Positions 988 through 23,300 of a DNA stretch of 64,000 nucleotides are shown piece by piece. Location: the IMG/VR virus record IMGVR_UViG_3300017613_000793, positions 5,195 through 69,194 of that record; one strand, 5' to 3'. Source of the DNA: a virus. Position numbers and translations under genes: made by a program. Each line of letters starts with the position of its first letter. The first letter of the stretch is position 1. A model generated the notes under the pieces. The model had not been told where the DNA came from. It worked only from the letters and a program-made list of their open reading frames with translations, and did not search any database.

Positions 988-1566
988 TTTAGGAACCAAG
1001 CTTGTCACATACCCTTTCCGTCTGTGCAACGCTTTATAAAATCCCCAGTCTATCCATTCCAACCACGGTTTAAATCTACAAAAAATTATCTTCTCAGGTC
1101 CACCAATAACCTGATACACCCCATGTTCAAATATACCAAACAACTCCCGAAGCCTTGCCCGGTCCCTCATCAACATCATCACCAAATCTTCAGTCCTGTA
1201 AAGCTTAAATATAACCACCGGGATTTTACCAGATGCTTGAGCATCACCTTCAGCTTGCTCCATCCAATCATATACCTGACTTGGCTTTCCATAAAGTCCT
1301 GCAAAGATATGCTTCACATTATCATCATGCCAATCTTTACACTCAACAGAAAATGGAAAGCTGTTATCCAACTGCATCTCTTCAGACTTATCCGACATAA
1401 ACTTAAATGGCTGTATATCTCCTGGTGCAATCCTCTTATCCCAACCACCAGAAGATGGTGTCCGTCTAAACTCTCCGTCATCATCTGGATACCACTCACC
1501 ATCAAACAATTTTCCAATACGCCTTTCATGCCGTCCTGACTTTTGCCTCTGTCCACCCTTCTTCAT
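982..1566 (-). CDS. Holliday junction resolvase-like PD-(D/E)xK nuclease
   Basis: ER..I, RTPSSGG, GDI, SVECK motifs typical of phage D14/Hjc-like resolvases; lies next to Rad50/Mre11. Confidence 0.75.
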   Translation of the reverse strand: MKKGGQRQKSGRHERRIGKLFDGEWYPDDDGEFRRTPSSGGWDKRIAPGDIQPFKFMSDKSEEMQLDNSFPFSVECKDWHDDNVKHIFAGLYGKPSQVYDWMEQAEGDAQASGKIPVVIFKLYRTEDLVMMLMRDRARLRELFGIFEHGVYQVIGGPEKIIFCRFKPWLEWIDWGFYKALHRRKGYVTSLVPKS

Positions 1567-1673
1567 CTAATGGCATCCTTTACCAATTTAATAACATACA
1601 CAATCAATCCTAACCATGCCAAAACACCAAGTATTTTTACTACGACAATTGCCCAAATTAAAGCTTCCATTTT

Positions 1674-3590
1674 TTATCCTTGTTCTATCACTGAACCATT
1701 CTCATCCTTCACCACCAAAATTTGATTATCAAAATAATCTCTCAATTCATTCTGATGACTAATAACAAAAATAGCCTTGTCCTTGGACTCTTCACGGAGA
1801 AGGTTTACAACTCTCTCAACACCTGTAATATCCAAGTGCTCAAACACCTCATCAAACACAACAAGGTTACAGTTGTTTGCATTCCGACTAAATATCATGT
1901 TCTGCAGTGCAAGCAAAATTGACACATCAATCCTTCCCTTTTCACCACTGGAACAATTTTCATAGGCCACAACTTCTTCACCGTAGATAATACTCACATT
2001 GAATTTGTCCCTGGTCTCACCGGACTTCAACGTGCTCTCTGTTTTGAACTCAAGCTGAATGTCATCATCCATCAACATGGATGCATAATAGTTTGCTTTC
2101 TTGTTTAGTTCTGGTACAATCTCATCCAGTAGAAAGGACTTGATTCCTTTGTTTCCAAAACCCTCAACCCAAAATTCATGATATTCAAATTCACCTTTGG
2201 TCTTCTCAATGCTTGCTGTCAGGTCTAAAAGTTGCTGTTGAAGTGGCTCCATCTTTTTTAATATTTGCTTCTTACGGTCCTCAATTTCCTTAACCGCTTC
2301 TTCAGTATAACCCTTAATCATTTTTATGTCATTCTGCTTTCCTTCAACCTCTGTGCTCAACCCAAGAATTTCACTCTTCAATGAGTCAATCTTAACAGAC
2401 ATACTTCCCAACTGTGAATCATACTCATGCCTTAAATCAACAACCTCTTTAATCCTCTTGTCAAAGTCAGCCTCAACTTTTTCCCGGTTCTCTTTTGCTT
2501 TTGTATATGCCTGTTCCTCAACCTCACACTTCTTTTTAATAACATCAAGCTCTTCACTAAAGTGGTCCTTCATTTCCGTAATTGATTCTTTTGTAACAGG
2601 TTGCTTACACTTCGGACACCGTGTTCCTTCTGGAACTGTCTCACCCTTCACAATAGCTTCCAACTCAATCATATCCGTTGTCAACAACCTCAAGTTCATA
2701 TAATGGGTGTTTTCTAATTCATTCAACTTTACCATACCACTAGACTTCTTATCTGCCAAAGTTGTTATGGTCTGATACAAAGTGCTGTCATCTTCCTTCA
2801 ATGAAGCCTTATCTTCCTGAAGCTTCACAAGCTTAGAATTATTTTCACCAATACTAATCTGCACTGATTGCATCTCAGCCTTCAACTTCTCTACTTCATG
2901 AAATGCCTTTTCCTTTTTCTTCTTGGCTTCCACAAGCCTTTGTTCCTCTTCACCAACACTGTCCTTATACTGCTCAATAGATGTGAGCACAATGCCCAAC
3001 TTTCCCTCATTCTCCTGCAGTGTAACTTTCAAAGACTTGACATCATCCTTAGCTCTAGCCTGTGCTTCCACATACTGATGGAACATCATGATTTCATCAA
3101 ATATTTCTTTCTTCTCTGCGTCCTTTGCCTGTGTGAATCTACGTGCTTTTTCACCAAAAATAACTGCATTAGAGAATACCAACCAATTCATTCCAAGCAC
3201 TTGGTCAATCATATCCTGGGTGTCATTCATGGTCCCGGCTGTAATGTCCTGCTCACCTTTTAAAAACCTTAATTCATTTGCATTGTCAGAGTCACCACGG
3301 AACCTAACAACTGTGTACTCATGTCCCTCAGATTCCAAAGCCAAAGCAACCATACAGTCTTTTCCAAACTTACGATTTATCACATCATCCTTACCAGTGT
3401 TTCTAATGGTCTTTCCATATAGTGAAAAACACACAGCTTCAAACAGTGCAGACTTACCTGCACCATTGCTATTACTCATAGCCTTACCTGTGACCTCACC
3501 ACCAATAAAATGCAAACCAGTGCTTGGAACACTAAACTCTAGTGTTTCAAATGACATAAAATTTATGGCTTCAATTGCATGTATTCTCAT
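1674..3590 (-). CDS. SbcC/Rad50/gp46-like recombination ATPase
   Basis: Walker A SNGAGKS, long coiled coil with CPKC zinc hook, signature SSGE, Walker B VFDEVF, SH motif. Confidence 0.93.
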   Translation of the reverse strand: MRIHAIEAINFMSFETLEFSVPSTGLHFIGGEVTGKAMSNSNGAGKSALFEAVCFSLYGKTIRNTGKDDVINRKFGKDCMVALALESEGHEYTVVRFRGDSDNANELRFLKGEQDITAGTMNDTQDMIDQVLGMNWLVFSNAVIFGEKARRFTQAKDAEKKEIFDEIMMFHQYVEAQARAKDDVKSLKVTLQENEGKLGIVLTSIEQYKDSVGEEEQRLVEAKKKKEKAFHEVEKLKAEMQSVQISIGENNSKLVKLQEDKASLKEDDSTLYQTITTLADKKSSGMVKLNELENTHYMNLRLLTTDMIELEAIVKGETVPEGTRCPKCKQPVTKESITEMKDHFSEELDVIKKKCEVEEQAYTKAKENREKVEADFDKRIKEVVDLRHEYDSQLGSMSVKIDSLKSEILGLSTEVEGKQNDIKMIKGYTEEAVKEIEDRKKQILKKMEPLQQQLLDLTASIEKTKGEFEYHEFWVEGFGNKGIKSFLLDEIVPELNKKANYYASMLMDDDIQLEFKTESTLKSGETRDKFNVSIIYGEEVVAYENCSSGEKGRIDVSILLALQNMIFSRNANNCNLVVFDEVFEHLDITGVERVVNLLREESKDKAIFVISHQNELRDYFDNQILVVKDENGSVIEQG

Positions 3591-4681
3591 AGGTATTTTC
3601 TCCCTATCTCAATCAACATATCAGCATCCAACTTACCTGCTCTTGCTTCCACATATTTTTCAATGATGTCCTTCCCAGAATCTGCCAATGAAATTGTTGT
3701 CCTCTTAGATGTATCTCTACTGGGTATCTGCATAACTCTTTTATACTTAATTGCCTTAACTTCTTCCGGCATATTAACACCATGTAGAATCACCCGGTAG
3801 AAGTCCGTCTCTGGTTTGCCAACAAACTTTGTGTCCTTCCCTTCCTGGTAAGTCAACGTATGGAACCTGGGAGAACCTGTGTTCTCCATGAACTGTAACT
3901 GATTGTCACCACCACCCTCTACATCTGTGTCCAGTATCCACCATCCGTGTGCTTTCCCTTCATCACTAAAGTTGTGCTCAAGTGGTGCTCCAATACTGAT
4001 GACATTATCCCTGACTCTCAACGTATCATGACAGTGCCCAACAAAGGAATACTTAAACTTCTTTGACAACATATCCGAGTCAAGTCCATTCTCCACAACA
4101 TACCCACCATAGTTGACACCAATGATGTCCTGGTGACCAAAGAAAATTGACTGCTCAAAATCTTCTACAGAAGCCTCTTCAATCTGTGTATTCAATTGAT
4201 TTGTCTTCCTGGTGTATGGGGATGCATATACATAAAGATTTTTCCAAACTGAAATACTTGCTTCCTGACTTATCAAAATCCTGTTCCACCCCTCATTCAT
4301 CACAATAATATTTTCACCCAGTGACTTAGCAACATCCAACAGTGCAGGTTCAGAACCCCAGAGCCTGTAATCATGGTTCCCAGGAAGAAGGTACACACGG
4401 CAAATTCTTGCCATACGTTCCAATGAGTCCATTAACACTTTAACAACCTGTGAGTCCACATTGTTTTTCAAATGTGTAAGGTCTCCACCAAACAATATTG
4501 CATTCAATGGAATGCTTTGAGCATACTCATTGATGCTTTCCATAACTTCCTTCTGATGGTACAGCCTGGAGTTAATACCATCATCTCTAATGTAACTGAA
4601 CTCCCGGAAATTGTGTCCGTGCAGGTCACTGAAAATTCCTATCTTCATTTTGTTACTCTCCACTTGATTATACGATACCAC
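3587..4681 (-). CDS. SbcD/Mre11/gp47-like nuclease (true start probably at MKIGIF)
   Basis: Metallophosphoesterase motifs SDLH, GDL, GNHD, GHCH; adjacent to the Rad50-like gene. Confidence 0.9.
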   Translation of the reverse strand: MVSYNQVESNKMKIGIFSDLHGHNFREFSYIRDDGINSRLYHQKEVMESINEYAQSIPLNAILFGGDLTHLKNNVDSQVVKVLMDSLERMARICRVYLLPGNHDYRLWGSEPALLDVAKSLGENIIVMNEGWNRILISQEASISVWKNLYVYASPYTRKTNQLNTQIEEASVEDFEQSIFFGHQDIIGVNYGGYVVENGLDSDMLSKKFKYSFVGHCHDTLRVRDNVISIGAPLEHNFSDEGKAHGWWILDTDVEGGGDNQLQFMENTGSPRFHTLTYQEGKDTKFVGKPETDFYRVILHGVNMPEEVKAIKYKRVMQIPSRDTSKRTTISLADSGKDIIEKYVEARAGKLDADMLIEIGRKYL

Positions 4682-11474: not shown

Positions 11475-11735
11475 TCATTTGTTTTTCCTATACTTCAACG
11501 CAAAATATACCCACACCACATTGGCTGAGACAATCACAAGCCCACCTGCAAAGCTCCACCACTGCTCCAAATGTGGGTAATAATAAAGATTCCAGATTCC
11601 CCACGTAGTGAAAAATGCTGTGCTTAAAACGCTCACACCTTTTACCTTCTTCTGCTTGTATAATATCCTTACATTATTCCACAACATGATTCCACCAAGG
11701 GATTCATACAAACCATTTACAATGTCTTGCCACAT
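11475..11735 (-). CDS. PQ-loop/SemiSWEET-like three-helix membrane protein
   Basis: 86 aa, three hydrophobic helices, K..KGVS loop and W..YY motif. Confidence 0.6.
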   Translation of the reverse strand: MWQDIVNGLYESLGGIMLWNNVRILYKQKKVKGVSVLSTAFFTTWGIWNLYYYPHLEQWWSFAGGLVIVSANVVWVYFALKYRKNK

Positions 11736-20190: not shown

Positions 20191-20363
20191 ATCTGCACCT
20201 TTATTTCTACATAGACTTGGTGCATATCATTGTAATGGGTACAGAAAGCCTTGAGTCCTTTTGCCCGGTGTGCATCTAACATGTCTTGAGCAAAGTGATT
20301 ATCATTTGTTTCATAAACATACCGACATTCTACCCCGGCATACCATTTGTTTTCTCTCTTCAT
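20187..20363 (-). CDS. Small hypothetical protein (58 aa, not in the ORF track)
   Basis: RBS AGGAG; MKRENKWYAG...; ATGA overlaps at both ends. Confidence 0.65.
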   Translation of the reverse strand: MKRENKWYAGVECRYVYETNDNHFAQDMLDAHRAKGLKAFCTHYNDMHQVYVEIKVQI

Positions 20364-20836
20364 TTTTTGTCTCCTATATTATATTCTTTCCAAGTCTTGT
20401 CCCAAACTTCCTGGAGAAGTCTACAATTATTCCTAAGTGACTTGCTTCTGGAAAGGACAACTCTTCTGACACTACCTCTTCTCTCTTCCATACCAAGAGT
20501 CCAACCACTGGGTGAAGTCCAGGAACCAGGAAGTAGAGCCTTGAGTGAACTGTCAGTAGTACATTTCCAACTCATGGTCTCAGTCTTGGAAACAACTCTC
20601 TCAAGTCTAACACTCTTCCAAGCCCAAGGTCTGAGTGCAAGAGCAACAAGAGCACTGGAGAGATTCATATCAGTCAGCTTCAGTTCCCAAGTTCTGTTGT
20701 TCCATTCTTCCAGTTCCTGCTCACTACTCTTCTTAGGAAGAGCACTCATTTTGGCTTGGCTCTTCATCCATCTCTTCAGTTCCTTGCTAGGCTTGCTGAG
20801 ACTTTTCTTACTCATCATCCTTGCTTGCTTATTCAT
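20360..20836 (-). CDS. Hypothetical basic Ser/Trp/Lys-rich protein in compositionally odd DNA
   Basis: RBS GAGGT and ATGA coupling to the next gene; no Phe or His residues. Confidence 0.5.
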   Translation of the reverse strand: MNKQARMMSKKSLSKPSKELKRWMKSQAKMSALPKKSSEQELEEWNNRTWELKLTDMNLSSALVALALRPWAWKSVRLERVVSKTETMSWKCTTDSSLKALLPGSWTSPSGWTLGMEERRGSVRRVVLSRSKSLRNNCRLLQEVWDKTWKEYNIGDKK

Positions 20837-20900
20837 AATTTACCTCTACTTATAATACGACTCAACAGGGTATTTTATTCAATATTGCCAAAATAAAAAT

Positions 20901-20971
20901 AGGTTAGGAATGCCGGAGACCTTGAGCGGTCTGGTTAGAAACATACTTTTTATTTGTGGCATTCCCAACCT
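20901..20971 (-). terminator. Terminal 14-bp stem of the ncRNA cassette followed by a U-rich tract
   Basis: AGGUUGGGAAUGCC/GGCAUUCCUAACCU enclosing hairpin AGACC-GCUCAA-GGUCU, then AUUUUUAUUUU. Confidence 0.55.
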
Positions 20972-21015
20972 TTAAAAAAATATTTATAGGAGAAAATCAG
21001 AAAGCTTAAATATAT

Positions 21016-21097
21016 TGCAGGGAGTGATGGGATTGGATACCCACAACCTTCCGGGTCTGATGCCGGATGCTCTACTAGCATTTGAGCTACACTCCCT
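21016..21097 (-). ncRNA. Aberrant tRNA-like RNA (8-nt anticodon loop, 8-nt T-loop)
   Basis: Acceptor GGGAGUG/CACUCCC, D-stem GCUC/GAGC, anticodon stem UCCGG/CCGGA with loop CAUCAGAC, T-stem GUGGG/CCCAU with loop UAUCCAAU; no encoded CCA. Confidence 0.75.
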
Positions 21098-21156
21098 AAT
21101 CAGCACAAGGTCTTGTCTCATAAGACTCACCTGCACTGTCCATGGCTTGTAAAAAT

Positions 21157-21190
21157 GTGAGGAAGAGCCGGAGGTGGAACCCTTCCCCAC
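21157..21190 (-). ncRNA. Hairpin presenting an anti-Shine-Dalgarno loop
   Basis: GUGGGGAAGGGUU/GGCUCUUCCUCAC stem (several G-U pairs) with loop CCACCUCC. Confidence 0.6.
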
Positions 21191-21236
21191 GGAGACAAAA
21201 AAATGATTAACAAATTTTTTAAATTAAAATTACGGT

Positions 21237-21309
21237 CCGGGTGTCTTGCTCCCCAGTGAAGCAAGAATTTTTTCGTAGTGTTATACCCACCACCTGGATG
21301 TTCACCCGG
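21237..21309 (-). ncRNA. Small three-way-junction RNA
   Basis: CCGGGUG/CACCCGG closing stem, hairpins GUGGUG/CACUAC and UCUUGCU/AGCAAGA. Confidence 0.55.
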
Positions 21310-21349
21310 CAAAAATTTATCAAAGGAGTTTACTATGCAAAATTATATT

Positions 21350-21765
21350 GACACTGTGAGACTTGGACAGACAGTTGAACATTCAGTATTCAAGTCGGCT
21401 ACTCGGTGACAACGAACTTCACAGCCACTCTATGGCTCCATCCATTGGGCTTGGATAATGACTCCAGCCTTACCATACCTAGTTTCAACTTTTTGTAACC
21501 GGGACCACCCGGACCTTGCTCACTCACCACAGGAATGCCCTAGACAACTTGTTCCAGAACAAACGGAGTATGTGTATCTTGTAGACAATCCAAGTATTTT
21601 CGTGTGAGAAGCCGTGGCTCCAATTCATGATATGGCCTTCTCATGGTCTTGTGGGTTGCTTACGCTGAAGCTTCATAGCAGTGACCCCTCACCACGTCTG
21701 CTTCCCCAACGTTCTTGTATCAGTCACAGCACCTCAGCTATGACCCTCACACGTCTCACAGCATC
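21350..21765 (-). ncRNA. Large (416 nt) structured non-coding RNA of unknown class
   Basis: 13-bp terminal helix GAUGCUGUGAGAC/GUCUCACAGUGUC, numerous internal hairpins, G-U pairs favouring the minus strand, no minus-strand ORF, promoter upstream. Confidence 0.72.
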
Positions 21766-21813
21766 CAAACAAAGACAAGGTATTAAGCCCTGTCTGTGTT
21801 ATCTACTTATTAA

Positions 21814-21826
21814 GTTGTCAAAGAAC
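21814..21826 (-). promoter_or_regulatory. boxA-like antitermination element
   Basis: GTTCTTTGACAAC about 25 nt after the predicted start site; resembles rRNA-leader boxA (GYTCTTTRANAA). Confidence 0.6.
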
Positions 21827-21855
21827 TCAGTCACTCAATCCTGGTGACCATTATC

Positions 21856-21885
21856 AGTTTACCAAAAAACTATTTCTCTTGTCAA
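21856..21885 (-). promoter_or_regulatory. Promoter of the ncRNA cassette
   Basis: TTGACA(21885-21880)-18-TAAACT(21861-21856), preceded by TGG; embedded in the 3' end of the sigma gene. Confidence 0.75.
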
Positions 21886-22659
21886 GCACTTTTTTATAAA
21901 AGAACTAAATCTAAATCTATCTGTTGATTCTCTATTAATAGTAATGTCCCAATTCTTTTTTGGAACCATCTTCTTTACTTTCTTATAACACTTACTCTGA
22001 CTCCAATAATGAACTTCAACCTCTTCCATTTTAATTGATTCAGGTTCAAGTTCAGGTTCAACCCATTCTTCTTTTGGCCTTAATGTAATTTCCTTTTTAT
22101 AACAGTTGTTTTGATTCCAATAATGAACCTCAACTTGTTCCATGGTCTCATCTAAATCCTGTGAAGGTTTTGATTTTGGTACAAACTTGTCTCTGATGTT
22201 TCGTATTATCTGAGCAGTCCATCGTTGACTATACCCTAAAACTTTTCCAGCTTCCTCTGTGGACATACCATCAAACACAACCAACTGAACTAAACGCCTT
22301 TGCTTTGGTGTCAACTTGTCTAACAAGTTTTGTTTCTGTTGGAACAATTGTTTAAACTCAAATATATCCATAGGAGTTTTTTTATCTTGCGTATCTTTAA
22401 AAAATGCTTTCTCATGGTCCAACAATCTTCTTTGTTGGTATTTCCATCTAATATGGTCCACCACTGCCCGGTCTGCAATTGTGTAAGCATAAGTTTCAAG
22501 AGTGCTCCTACCCTCAAACTTATCCAACGCCTCAACCAATCTCACATATGCATCAGATATAACATCTTCAATAACTTGGTGTGGTCTACCTGCAAGTTTA
22601 CCATAAATATGCCCACGCATTTTCTGTAGAACCTTATCTGAAATTTCAAACATACTCAT
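21859..22659 (-). CDS. sigma-70 family (ECF-like) RNA polymerase sigma factor with C-terminal duplicated motif
   Basis: Region 2 EDVISDAYVRL...KFEGRSTLETYAYTIA...VDH.R; region 4 LTPKQRRLV.L....GMSTEEAGKVLG. Confidence 0.85.
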   Translation of the reverse strand: MSMFEISDKVLQKMRGHIYGKLAGRPHQVIEDVISDAYVRLVEALDKFEGRSTLETYAYTIADRAVVDHIRWKYQQRRLLDHEKAFFKDTQDKKTPMDIFEFKQLFQQKQNLLDKLTPKQRRLVQLVVFDGMSTEEAGKVLGYSQRWTAQIIRNIRDKFVPKSKPSQDLDETMEQVEVHYWNQNNCYKKEITLRPKEEWVEPELEPESIKMEEVEVHYWSQSKCYKKVKKMVPKKNWDITINRESTDRFRFSSFIKKCLTREIVFW

Positions 22660-22674
22660 GCCTTGAAATTTTTT

Positions 22675-22750
22675 TGGAGCGTCCTGTCAGATTTGAACTG
22701 ACACCCTCAGGTTGGAAGCCTGGAATGCTACCGTTAAACACCAAGGACGC
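22675..22750 (-). tRNA. tRNA-Gly(TCC)
   Basis: Cloverleaf, anticodon loop CTTCCAA, encoded CCA. Confidence 0.9.
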
Positions 22751-22751
22751 T

Positions 22752-22825
22752 TGGCACTGACTGTGGGATTTGAACCCCTTCTCCCGGTAGACAGCCGGGT
22801 GTGTTACCATTACACTACAGCCAGT
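22752..22825 (-). tRNA. tRNA-Asp(GTC), non-canonical
   Basis: Anticodon loop CTGTCTA; extended acceptor helix, short T-stem, G discriminator plus CCA. Confidence 0.7.
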
Positions 22826-22828
22826 GTT

Positions 22829-22904
22829 TGGCAGGTCCGTCTGGATTTGAACCAGAGGCCACGGTTTTGGAGACCGTGATGTTAAGCCACTACACCACAG
22901 ACCT
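22829..22904 (-). tRNA. tRNA-Trp(CCA)
   Basis: Cloverleaf, loop CTCCAAA, G73 plus CCA. Confidence 0.9.
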
Positions 22905-22907
22905 GTG

Positions 22908-22980
22908 CGGAGCATAGGGGAATTGAACCCACTAATACAAGGTTGAAAGCCTTGTGTCCTAACCATTAGACTAATGCTCC
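22908..22980 (-). tRNA. tRNA-Glu(TTC)
   Basis: Cloverleaf, loop CTTTCAA; bulged T-stem; no encoded CCA. Confidence 0.8.
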
Positions 22981-22981
22981 A

Positions 22982-23058
22982 TGGTGGAGACGGTGGGACT
23001 TGAACCCACAACTTCCTGCTTGCAAAGCAGGTGCTCTCCCAAATTGAGCTACATCCCC
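22982..23058 (-). tRNA. tRNA-Ala(TGC)
   Basis: Cloverleaf, loop TTTGCAA, G3:U70 pair, encoded CCA. Confidence 0.93.
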
Positions 23059-23069
23059 AAAAATATTAT

Positions 23070-23144
23070 TGGAGGGTTGGAGTGGATTTGAACCACAATC
23101 TTCCGAGTTCACAGCCCGGTGCTCTACCTTTGAACTACCAACCC
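23070..23144 (-). tRNA. tRNA with GTG anticodon (His-like, lacks G-1:C73)
   Basis: Loop CTGTGAA; acceptor GGGTTGG/CCAACCC, U discriminator plus CCA. Confidence 0.8.
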
Positions 23145-23146
23145 AT

Positions 23147-23222
23147 TGGTGGGAAAGACAAGACTTGAACTTGCAACCCCTGGCTCCCAAAGCCAGTGCT
23201 CTACCAATTGAGCCACTTTCCC
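23147..23222 (-). tRNA. tRNA-Pro(TGG)
   Basis: Loop TTTGGGA; acceptor GGGAAAG/CTTTCCC, A73 plus CCA. Confidence 0.88.
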
Positions 23223-23225
23223 TGT

Positions 23226-23300
23226 TGGCTGTGGTGGATAGATTTGAACTATCAACACCCTGTTTAACAGACAGGTGCTCTACCATTGAGCTACACCACA
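23226..23300 (-). tRNA. tRNA-Asn(GTT)
   Basis: Loop CTGTTAA, G73 plus CCA. Confidence 0.92.

Follow-up and report, generated by a model that had tools for sequence, protein, structure and literature searches.

The "tRNA-like stable RNAs" of phage T5 are one comparison case for phage RNAs that resemble transfer RNA (tRNA). In phage T4, RNAC and RNAD are small RNAs from the tRNA region whose role is given as unknown in the account cited here (PMC3014915). The large RNAs GOLLD and ROOL are described near tRNA islands, with which they are possibly co-transcribed, and the sections cited place tRNAs in the GOLLD linker (PMC5737381; 10.1101/2024.12.08.627333). An enlarged anticodon loop is described for tRNA-SufJ, a +1 frameshift suppressor with a C31.5 insertion (PMC4238358). 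Here we describe a tRNA-shaped element in a 64-kb stretch of the IMG/VR record IMGVR_UViG_3300017613_000793, hereafter the window, whose numbering is used throughout. The element is of a known kind, namely phage tRNA-like small RNAs or non-canonical tRNA genes, and we tentatively favor its assignment as a non-decoding tRNA-shaped module for processing or stability, like T4 RNA C/D. The whole record is 69 kb and is estimated to be ~75% complete; negative results on its genes cover these 69 kb, and ~25% of the genome lies outside them. The record derives from a tailed phage that encodes a family-A DNA polymerase, helicases, a tape-measure protein, and its own sigma factor. The phage uses the standard genetic code, nearly all window genes are on the minus strand, and stop-to-stop open reading frames (ORFs) of at least 100 amino acids (aa) cover 93% of the window. 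The element and the phage's tRNA array are located as follows.

21019-21096, minus strand: tRNA-shaped element (Rfam tRNA match of 44.2 bits, predicted fold, no ARAGORN call)
22675-23300, minus strand: eight canonical tRNA genes, Asn, Pro, His, Ala, Glu, Trp, Asp, and Gly (ARAGORN and Rfam)

The element has the 7/4/5/5 cloverleaf and 5-nucleotide (nt) variable region of a canonical tRNA (RF00005). Its acceptor stem is GGGAGUG/CACUCCC (7 bp), and position -1 (21097) is an A that could pair with U73 to give an eighth acceptor base pair. The D stem, GCUC/GAGC (4 bp), closes an 11-nt loop, AAAUGCUAGUA, in which the GG of G18/G19 is absent. The anticodon stem, UCCGG/CCGGA (5 bp), carries an 8-nt loop, CAUCAGAC; the variable region is AGGUU; and the T stem, GUGGG/CCCAU (5 bp, one G.U), carries an 8-nt loop, UAUCCAAU, that is not UUCRAAU. 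In contrast to this T-loop, all eight array tRNAs contain TTCAA. A functional elongator tRNA has seven nucleotides both in the anticodon loop, with U33 and a purine at 37, and in the T-loop (T54-Psi55-C56-R57-A58), which builds the elbow together with G18G19 of the D-loop. The discriminator is U and is followed by a 3' trailer, GCA, at 21018-21016. A preliminary description made from the DNA sequence had listed four paired stems, an 8-nt anticodon loop containing UCA, an 8-nt T-loop without UUC, a D-loop without GG, and a 3' end of UGCA, and our analysis confirms each of these features. In the Rfam alignment, all 21 helix pairs are standard; the same output shows one non-standard pair in each of four array tRNAs (Glu, His, Asp, and Gly).

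The Rfam tRNA model aligns with the element from end to end at 44.2 bits, as compared to a gathering score of 29; the eight array tRNAs span 35.8-72.8 bits, a range that includes this score. The expectation value (E) is 1.8e-7 when 3 kb are searched and 6.2e-8 for 1 kb, in both cases with laxer filters; the element is not listed in the default-filter scan of the whole window at gathering thresholds. The resemblance to tRNA is thus far beyond chance. Single-base insertions are placed in the anticodon loop (C-a-U-CAG-A-C) and in the T-loop (U-a-UCCAAU), and once one extra base is allowed on the 5' side of the anticodon loop, U33, CAG, and A37 are in register. ARAGORN, which the preliminary description had suggested as a check, does not call the element at its default, 95%, or 80% thresholds; the relaxed settings (95% and 80%) already give 31 extra calls. 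The minimum free energy of the element is -31.2 kcal/mol (z = -2.77), and 3 of 200 shuffled sequences fold equally well or better. Within a predicted 961-nt transcript, the acceptor, anticodon, and T stems pair with probabilities (P) of 0.83-0.99, and pairing outside the element is expected for only ~1.1 of its 78 bases. The D stem has P = 0.1, because the odd D-loop creates a competing local UAGC/GCUA hairpin. These predictions suggest that the element is a self-contained folding module within the transcript.

The element is the last module of an ORF-free unit of approximately 1 kb that extends from a promoter-like site to a terminator. The unit is placed between the sigma-factor gene and a 158-aa ORF, and these ~1 kb contain no credible ORF. 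Its parts and neighbors are listed below.

21856-21885, minus strand: promoter-like site, TTGACA-18-TAAACT with TG before the -10 hexamer; candidate start of the unit, with 10 of 12 hexamer matches
21098-21855, minus strand: ORF-free, GC-enriched stretch; candidate large structured RNA or RNAs of no Rfam family (composition, fold, Rfam)
21157-21190, minus strand: 13-bp hairpin, then AUUUUUACAA; situated 60 nt upstream of the element and possibly an internal terminator or attenuator
20889-20971, minus strand: terminator of the unit, with a 14-bp outer stem and an inner hairpin followed by UAUUUUUAUUUU (z -2.3)
21859-22659, minus strand: phage sigma-factor gene (Sigma70_r2, Sigma70_r4, and Sigma70_ECF)
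20360-20836, minus strand: 158-aa ORF of no assigned function, just past the terminator; absent also from the related contig L082
18943-20190, minus strand: gene for a 415-aa protein (phrog_2319, replication-type, weak OB-fold/SSB-like resemblance); anchor for finding related loci

The promoter-like site (21885-21856) is a consensus match that has the joint best score of a 3.5-kb scan, and the terminator lies 47 nt downstream of the element. The GC fraction of the unit is 0.46-0.50, as compared to ~0.36-0.45 in most of the flanking coding sequence. The minus strand of the unit folds to -239.6 kcal/mol (z -2.5), versus -190 kcal/mol (z -0.45) for the plus strand. Together with one 412-nt gap, the unit forms the largest ORF-free gaps in the window. 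The tRNA array is 1.6 kb upstream of the element on the same strand, with the sigma-factor gene just downstream of the array.

Our tentative proposal is that the element descends from an ordinary CCA-encoding phage tRNA, keeps tRNA geometry, and no longer, or barely, decodes. It would be transcribed as the last module of the non-coding operon, and its acceptor/T-arm "top half" would be recognized by host tRNA-processing enzymes. RNase P would cut at its 5' end, while its 3' end would be shortened by RNase Z or exonucleases and perhaps then receive CCA. Such cuts would free the upstream structured RNAs and set their 3' ends, leaving the element itself as a stable small tRNA-like RNA that is probably not aminoacylated. 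Three loops and the tail deviate together, which argues against efficient use by the ribosome. A non-decoding module is favored because the features needed by the ribosome are all affected and no helix is, because the element lies at the end of the operon, and because no decoding client was found. An RNase P/Z processing signal was among the roles raised in the preliminary description; of these roles it best fits the context, that of a last module in an ORF-free unit beside a tRNA array, although the cleavage itself is only inferred.

Like T4 RNA C/D, the element is a small non-coding RNA encoded with or near a phage tRNA cluster. It differs in keeping a complete cloverleaf and in ending a unit of approximately 1 kb, with the sigma-factor gene between this unit and the tRNA array; it is not known to be related in sequence to T4 RNA C/D. 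With GOLLD and ROOL, the locus shares a large, presumably structured ORF-free RNA, a nearby phage tRNA island, and a tRNA-type module on the presumed transcript. In those systems the linked tRNA is a normal one, in contrast to the aberrant tRNA at this locus. Should the tRNA shape have been retained for the sake of processing, stability, or mimicry, the element would be a further instance in which phages employ the tRNA fold structurally within operons of non-coding RNA. The combination of perfect helices, two expanded loops, a lost elbow, a CCA-to-GCA tail, and two RNA ligases in one phage could help to show the use that is made of the tRNA "top half" on its own.

Relatives of the element were sought in several collections. 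Among GenBank phages, the segment 20300-22700 has no DNA match, and the element resembles assorted tRNAs weakly, the best being a tRNA-Asn (79% over 67 nt). A 24-nt exact pattern has no matches in IMG/VR. When the element and the 1-kb unit are compared by BLAST with 152 loci that encode relatives of the downstream 415-aa protein, just two chance-level matches result (E 0.2-0.3). A loops-only pattern has 84 matches in IMG/VR, approximately the number estimated for chance, and in none of these are both stems paired. A D-loop pattern has one viral match and four genome matches, none of which is tRNA-like at E <= 1 by R1, a covariance model built from the window's nine sequences. On the basis of these searches, the element appears to be a singleton in all collections searched. 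Contigs of the sequencing runs X1-X3 contribute low-depth identical fragments only, with no variants in the parts of the element that they cover. The contig from run X1 matches 20967-21261 with 0 differences; it does not count as independent confirmation, since it and the window may share one sample.

Searches with the sigma-factor and DNA polymerase proteins did not find a close phage relative. Other relatives are 46-65% identical (P0002-P0006) or 40% identical (P0009). The only moderately close contig is L082, whose homologue of the 415-aa protein is 46% identical. L082 keeps the gene order from sigma factor to 415-aa gene, with collinear sigma-factor homology (E = 3e-9). The two genes abut in L082, without the non-coding unit, the element, the 158-aa ORF, or a tRNA. 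The cassette would therefore be either a lineage-specific insertion or a segment lost in L082.

Unusual tRNA shapes do occur at related positions in other phages. ARAGORN finds 18 tRNAs in 10 of the 152 loci, and in 8 of these 10 the tRNAs are upstream of the 415-aa homologue on the same strand. One call, L043:3555-3641 (same contig as L111), is flagged by ARAGORN as having a 4-base anticodon and has an Rfam tRNA score of 50.1 bits. Its acceptor, D, and T arms are canonical and its variable arm is long, but a 9-bp hairpin with a 3-nt loop takes the place of the anticodon arm (z -3.6). Its position is the 3' end of an ORF-free gap of 1.4 kb (2388-3800). Model R1 was used to screen the window and 199 of 224 distinct loci (all but L213-L237), these loci amounting to ~1.6 Mb of phage DNA in addition to the window. 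A single clear element that ARAGORN had not called emerges, L036:3728-3811 (28 bits), along with two marginal matches. In the L036 element, an acceptor stem, a T-arm, and CCA are combined with a middle part that is non-canonical. Microbacterium phage Pumpernickel has an unannotated homologue (NC_073468.1, ~100456-100535; L246:2492-2571), inside a tRNA island that starts two genes after a gene annotated "RtcB-like RNA ligase". Both are ARAGORN-negative and have a T-arm, and they show compensatory changes in the acceptor stem and a conserved CUUCUAA/C hairpin loop. The L043 and L036 elements are both upstream of homologues of the 415-aa gene. These cases indicate that conserved, non-decoding tRNA shapes missed by annotation are present in phage tRNA islands. 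Standard tRNA finders skip such elements, which leaves phage regions annotated as empty. The L043 and L036 elements are not homologous to the element studied here; they therefore support the class, not this member.

Several observations weigh against a processing or stability module. No homologue of the element was found in the collections searched, and selection is therefore not backed by covariation or conservation. In sequence, the L043 and L036 analogues have no relation to it, and they could be independent tRNA wrecks; tRNA genes also gather at this position, with canonical tRNAs upstream of the 415-aa gene in 6 other loci. The hairpin and U-run at 21190-21157, 60 nt upstream, could stop transcription before the element is reached. 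RNase P normally contacts the T-loop/D-loop elbow and position 74, so the altered elbow and G74 may make cleavage inefficient. In the 1-kb search (20860-21870), the RNA upstream of the element matches no Rfam family even at E <= 10, including GOLLD and ROOL, which we take to be RF01998 and RF03087. The missing encoded CCA is not disqualifying alone; tRNA-Glu of the array lacks it too, with CAC in its place.

The same data could describe a decaying tRNA pseudogene, that is, a functionless and passively transcribed former member of the phage tRNA set, nearest to Ala or His, that would have acquired indels in two loops, lost G18/G19, and changed its CCA to GCA. We regard this explanation as doubtful, though a serious one. 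The array tRNAs closest to the element are Ala (57/78 identical) and His (55/78). CCA is encoded directly after the discriminator in seven of the eight array tRNAs, and the GCA tail of the element is one base from CCA, as if by a single mutation. From this tail, the nearness to the array tRNAs, and the weak resemblance to tRNAs of GenBank phages, the element is taken to be a diverged descendant of an ordinary CCA-encoding tRNA gene. All hallmarks needed for translation are damaged together, the element is a singleton with no conserved relatives found, and L082, without the whole region, indicates that the region is dispensable. A wreck would also be unsurprising where tRNA genes recur upstream of the 415-aa gene in distant phages. 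However, none of the 21 helix pairs is broken, though helices make up 42 of 81 positions, and the departures from the tRNA consensus, of which there are at least six, are all at unpaired positions. If a canonical ancestor is assumed, the neutral chance of damage confined to loops is ~0.57 per event, or ~0.03 for six events, a rough estimate (2-3%). The score of 44.2 bits is above that of the array tRNA-Gly (35.8 bits) and close to that of tRNA-Asp (47.6 bits). In addition, phage genomes are compact, and here the unit and the 412-nt gap are the largest gaps. The preliminary description had taken intact stems with altered loops as a sign of selection on shape rather than decay. The confinement of departures to unpaired positions makes this plausible, but no homologue shows covariation, and the pattern is suggestive only. 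If the element is merely a decaying tRNA, the finding is an ordinary one.

A working decoder would be either a SufJ-type +1 frameshifter reading CUG-N or a UGA/CUGA reader acting via UCA/UCAG, and we consider it very unlikely. In its favor, the helices are perfect, and the loop C31.5-A32-U33-CAG-A37-C38 has its extra base 5' of U33 and the anticodon and A37 otherwise in register, as in the layout described for tRNA-SufJ (PMC4238358). SufJ, in contrast, is a laboratory mutant of an otherwise normal tRNA-Thr, whereas the element also has an abnormal T-loop, D-loop, and 3' tail. Such defects, along with G74, would be expected to impair its function with EF-Tu and on the ribosome. We know of no bacterial Leu identity set that is fit by a class-I body with U73. 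In the UCA register, the position preceding the anticodon, 33, is A rather than U33. Nor does the element resemble tRNA-Sec, which has an 8/5 acceptor/T helix, a long variable arm, and a 6-bp D stem; the element has a 5-nt variable region and a 4-bp D stem.

The search for decoding clients covered the phage's own genes in ~75% of its genome, that is, the 69-kb record, and found none. TGA ends 25 of 82 crude gene calls (TAA 46 and TAG 11), and in-frame extensions past TGA are mostly short. No TGA read-through product is evident among the 82 calls, with two listed 46-codon extensions not looked at, one of which follows a doubtful 77-aa plus-strand call inside the cassette. The longest extension past the TGA of a real gene, 88 codons, follows the DnaB-like helicase gene. 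It was rejected as read-through, being a separate gene for a small membrane protein with its own ribosome-binding site and ATG. This gene (window 11478-11735, minus strand), for a hydrophobic protein of ~86 aa, has a ribosome-binding site that overlaps the helicase TGA and was missed by the crude ORF lists. For +1 frameshifting, none of 21 minus-strand ORF pairs is in need of a shift: every downstream ORF has a start that lies at most 92 nt before or 10 nt after the stop of the upstream ORF. An in-frame CTG occurs in only 2 of the 21 overlaps, and both downstream ORFs have their own starts. For the quadruplet- or UGA-reading tRNA suggested in the preliminary description, no client is visible, and A stands in place of U33 before UCA.

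A 291-codon plus-strand frame across the unit (window 21113-21988) is broken only by five TGA codons. It was rejected by inspection as non-protein-like and antisense into the sigma-factor gene, and we judge it to reflect chance or antisense bias. Sites complementary to the anticodon loop, GTCTGATG, occur five times exactly in the window, all on the plus strand and none on minus-strand transcripts; one of the five is the complement of the element itself. When up to one mismatch is allowed, GTCTGATG has 82 matching words in the whole window, versus 57 +/- 6.7 expected, an excess that we read as a compositional effect.

The tRNA-like domain of a YrlA-type Y RNA acting with a Ro60/Rsr protein was also considered, and we find it exceedingly improbable. 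YrlA RNAs mimic tRNA, RtcB is often linked with rsr/yrlA operons, and the element is likewise a tRNA mimic in an RtcB-encoding genome. However, the YrlA model (RF02553) has no match at the element; its sole weak match (21.7 bits, as compared to a gathering score of 69) is on the tRNA array. No TROVE/Ro protein is found in the record, where the same search gave matches in control genomes. The element also has free 5' and 3' acceptor ends and is not embedded in a Ro-binding helix. The Y-RNA-like module of the preliminary description is, accordingly, not supported. CCA-adding enzyme and tyrosine integrase (PF00589) were likewise absent from the record and found in control genomes. An attP-type tRNA fragment of a temperate phage was rejected, given that the record has no PF00589 match and that the element is a full-length cloverleaf.

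The element could instead be a tRNA mimic directed at host defenses, one that binds an anticodon nuclease or some other tRNA-binding defense protein as a decoy or sponge, alongside the RNA-repair enzymes of the phage; we think this unlikely. A decoy for host anticodon nucleases was among the roles raised in the preliminary description. The record encodes an RtcB ligase (321 bits) that is cut by the contig end. One gene separates it from an ATP-dependent RNA ligase (PF09414, 50 bits), after which comes a ribonucleotide reductase. This locus is outside the window (record 1-2247; L240:1-1026, 1291-2247, minus strand). By sequence, RtcB and the RNA ligase look like an RNA-repair kit. Phage RNA ligases are described as countering host anticodon nucleases, with T4 Rnl and PrrC as the precedent in the passages cited (PMC10264068, PMC3014915). 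By this analogy, the life of this phage plausibly includes tRNA-directed conflict. A non-cleavable binder might also look like this, with a full tRNA body and an anticodon loop that is abnormal, and the Pumpernickel tRNA-like element offers a parallel in its position near an RtcB-like ligase. The RtcB and ligase genes are, however, ~25 kb from the element, and our literature searches gave no description of expanded-loop tRNA decoys. To our knowledge, the loop CAUCAGAC resembles no nuclease target. A purpose-built mimic in phage-host tRNA conflict, whether a nuclease decoy or a "pro-tRNA", is in our estimation a long shot. In the pro-tRNA version, a wobble-excising or anticodon-loop nuclease would trim one base, and the phage RtcB or RNA ligase would reseal the loop. 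The resealed loop would have a normal 7 nt (C-U-CAG-A-C), so the host defense would activate a phage tRNA.

Turning to the neighboring genes, the 415-aa protein was considered as a tRNA enzyme and rejected, as its best structural matches are weak ones to OB-fold SSB/RPA proteins. Its structural model has a predicted local distance difference test (pLDDT) value of 76 and a predicted template-modeling (pTM) score of 0.51. The best Foldseek matches are to OB-fold SSB/RPA (E >= 1.9e-3), with none below 0.001 and no PDB sequence match, and the association of this gene with tRNA genes is therefore probably positional. Residues C118, H120, C121, and C148 are invariant. With these residues and the weak OB-fold resemblance, the protein probably bears zinc, binds single-stranded nucleic acid, and belongs to the replication module.

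Long ORF-free gaps are also seen at related loci. The median largest gap is 208 nt, and 8 of 78 distinct loci have gaps of 0.9-1.4 kb. The ORF-free gaps of L042, L052, L063, L039, L140, and others are unrelated to the window and contain no tRNA-like element. Five of them are mutually homologous stretches of 0.6-1.3 kb upstream of the 415-aa homologue (L042:1561-2819, L052:2020-3176, L063:1852-3176, L039:1530-2512, and L140:1418-2055), and L041 and L066 are weakly related. These stretches are 69% identical over ~1.1 kb, with patches of 80-94%, and have no Rfam match; on this sequence similarity, they are a candidate for an undescribed large phage RNA family. Just downstream of the gap in L041, positions 3239-3301 give a near-threshold match to the type II hammerhead ribozyme (35.5 bits, as compared to a gathering score of 37). 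Within the window's own array, tRNA-Glu is the sole tRNA without an encoded CCA, and its CAC (at 22905-22908, minus strand) directly abuts tRNA-Trp. The host must therefore provide 3' trimming and CCA addition for this tRNA.

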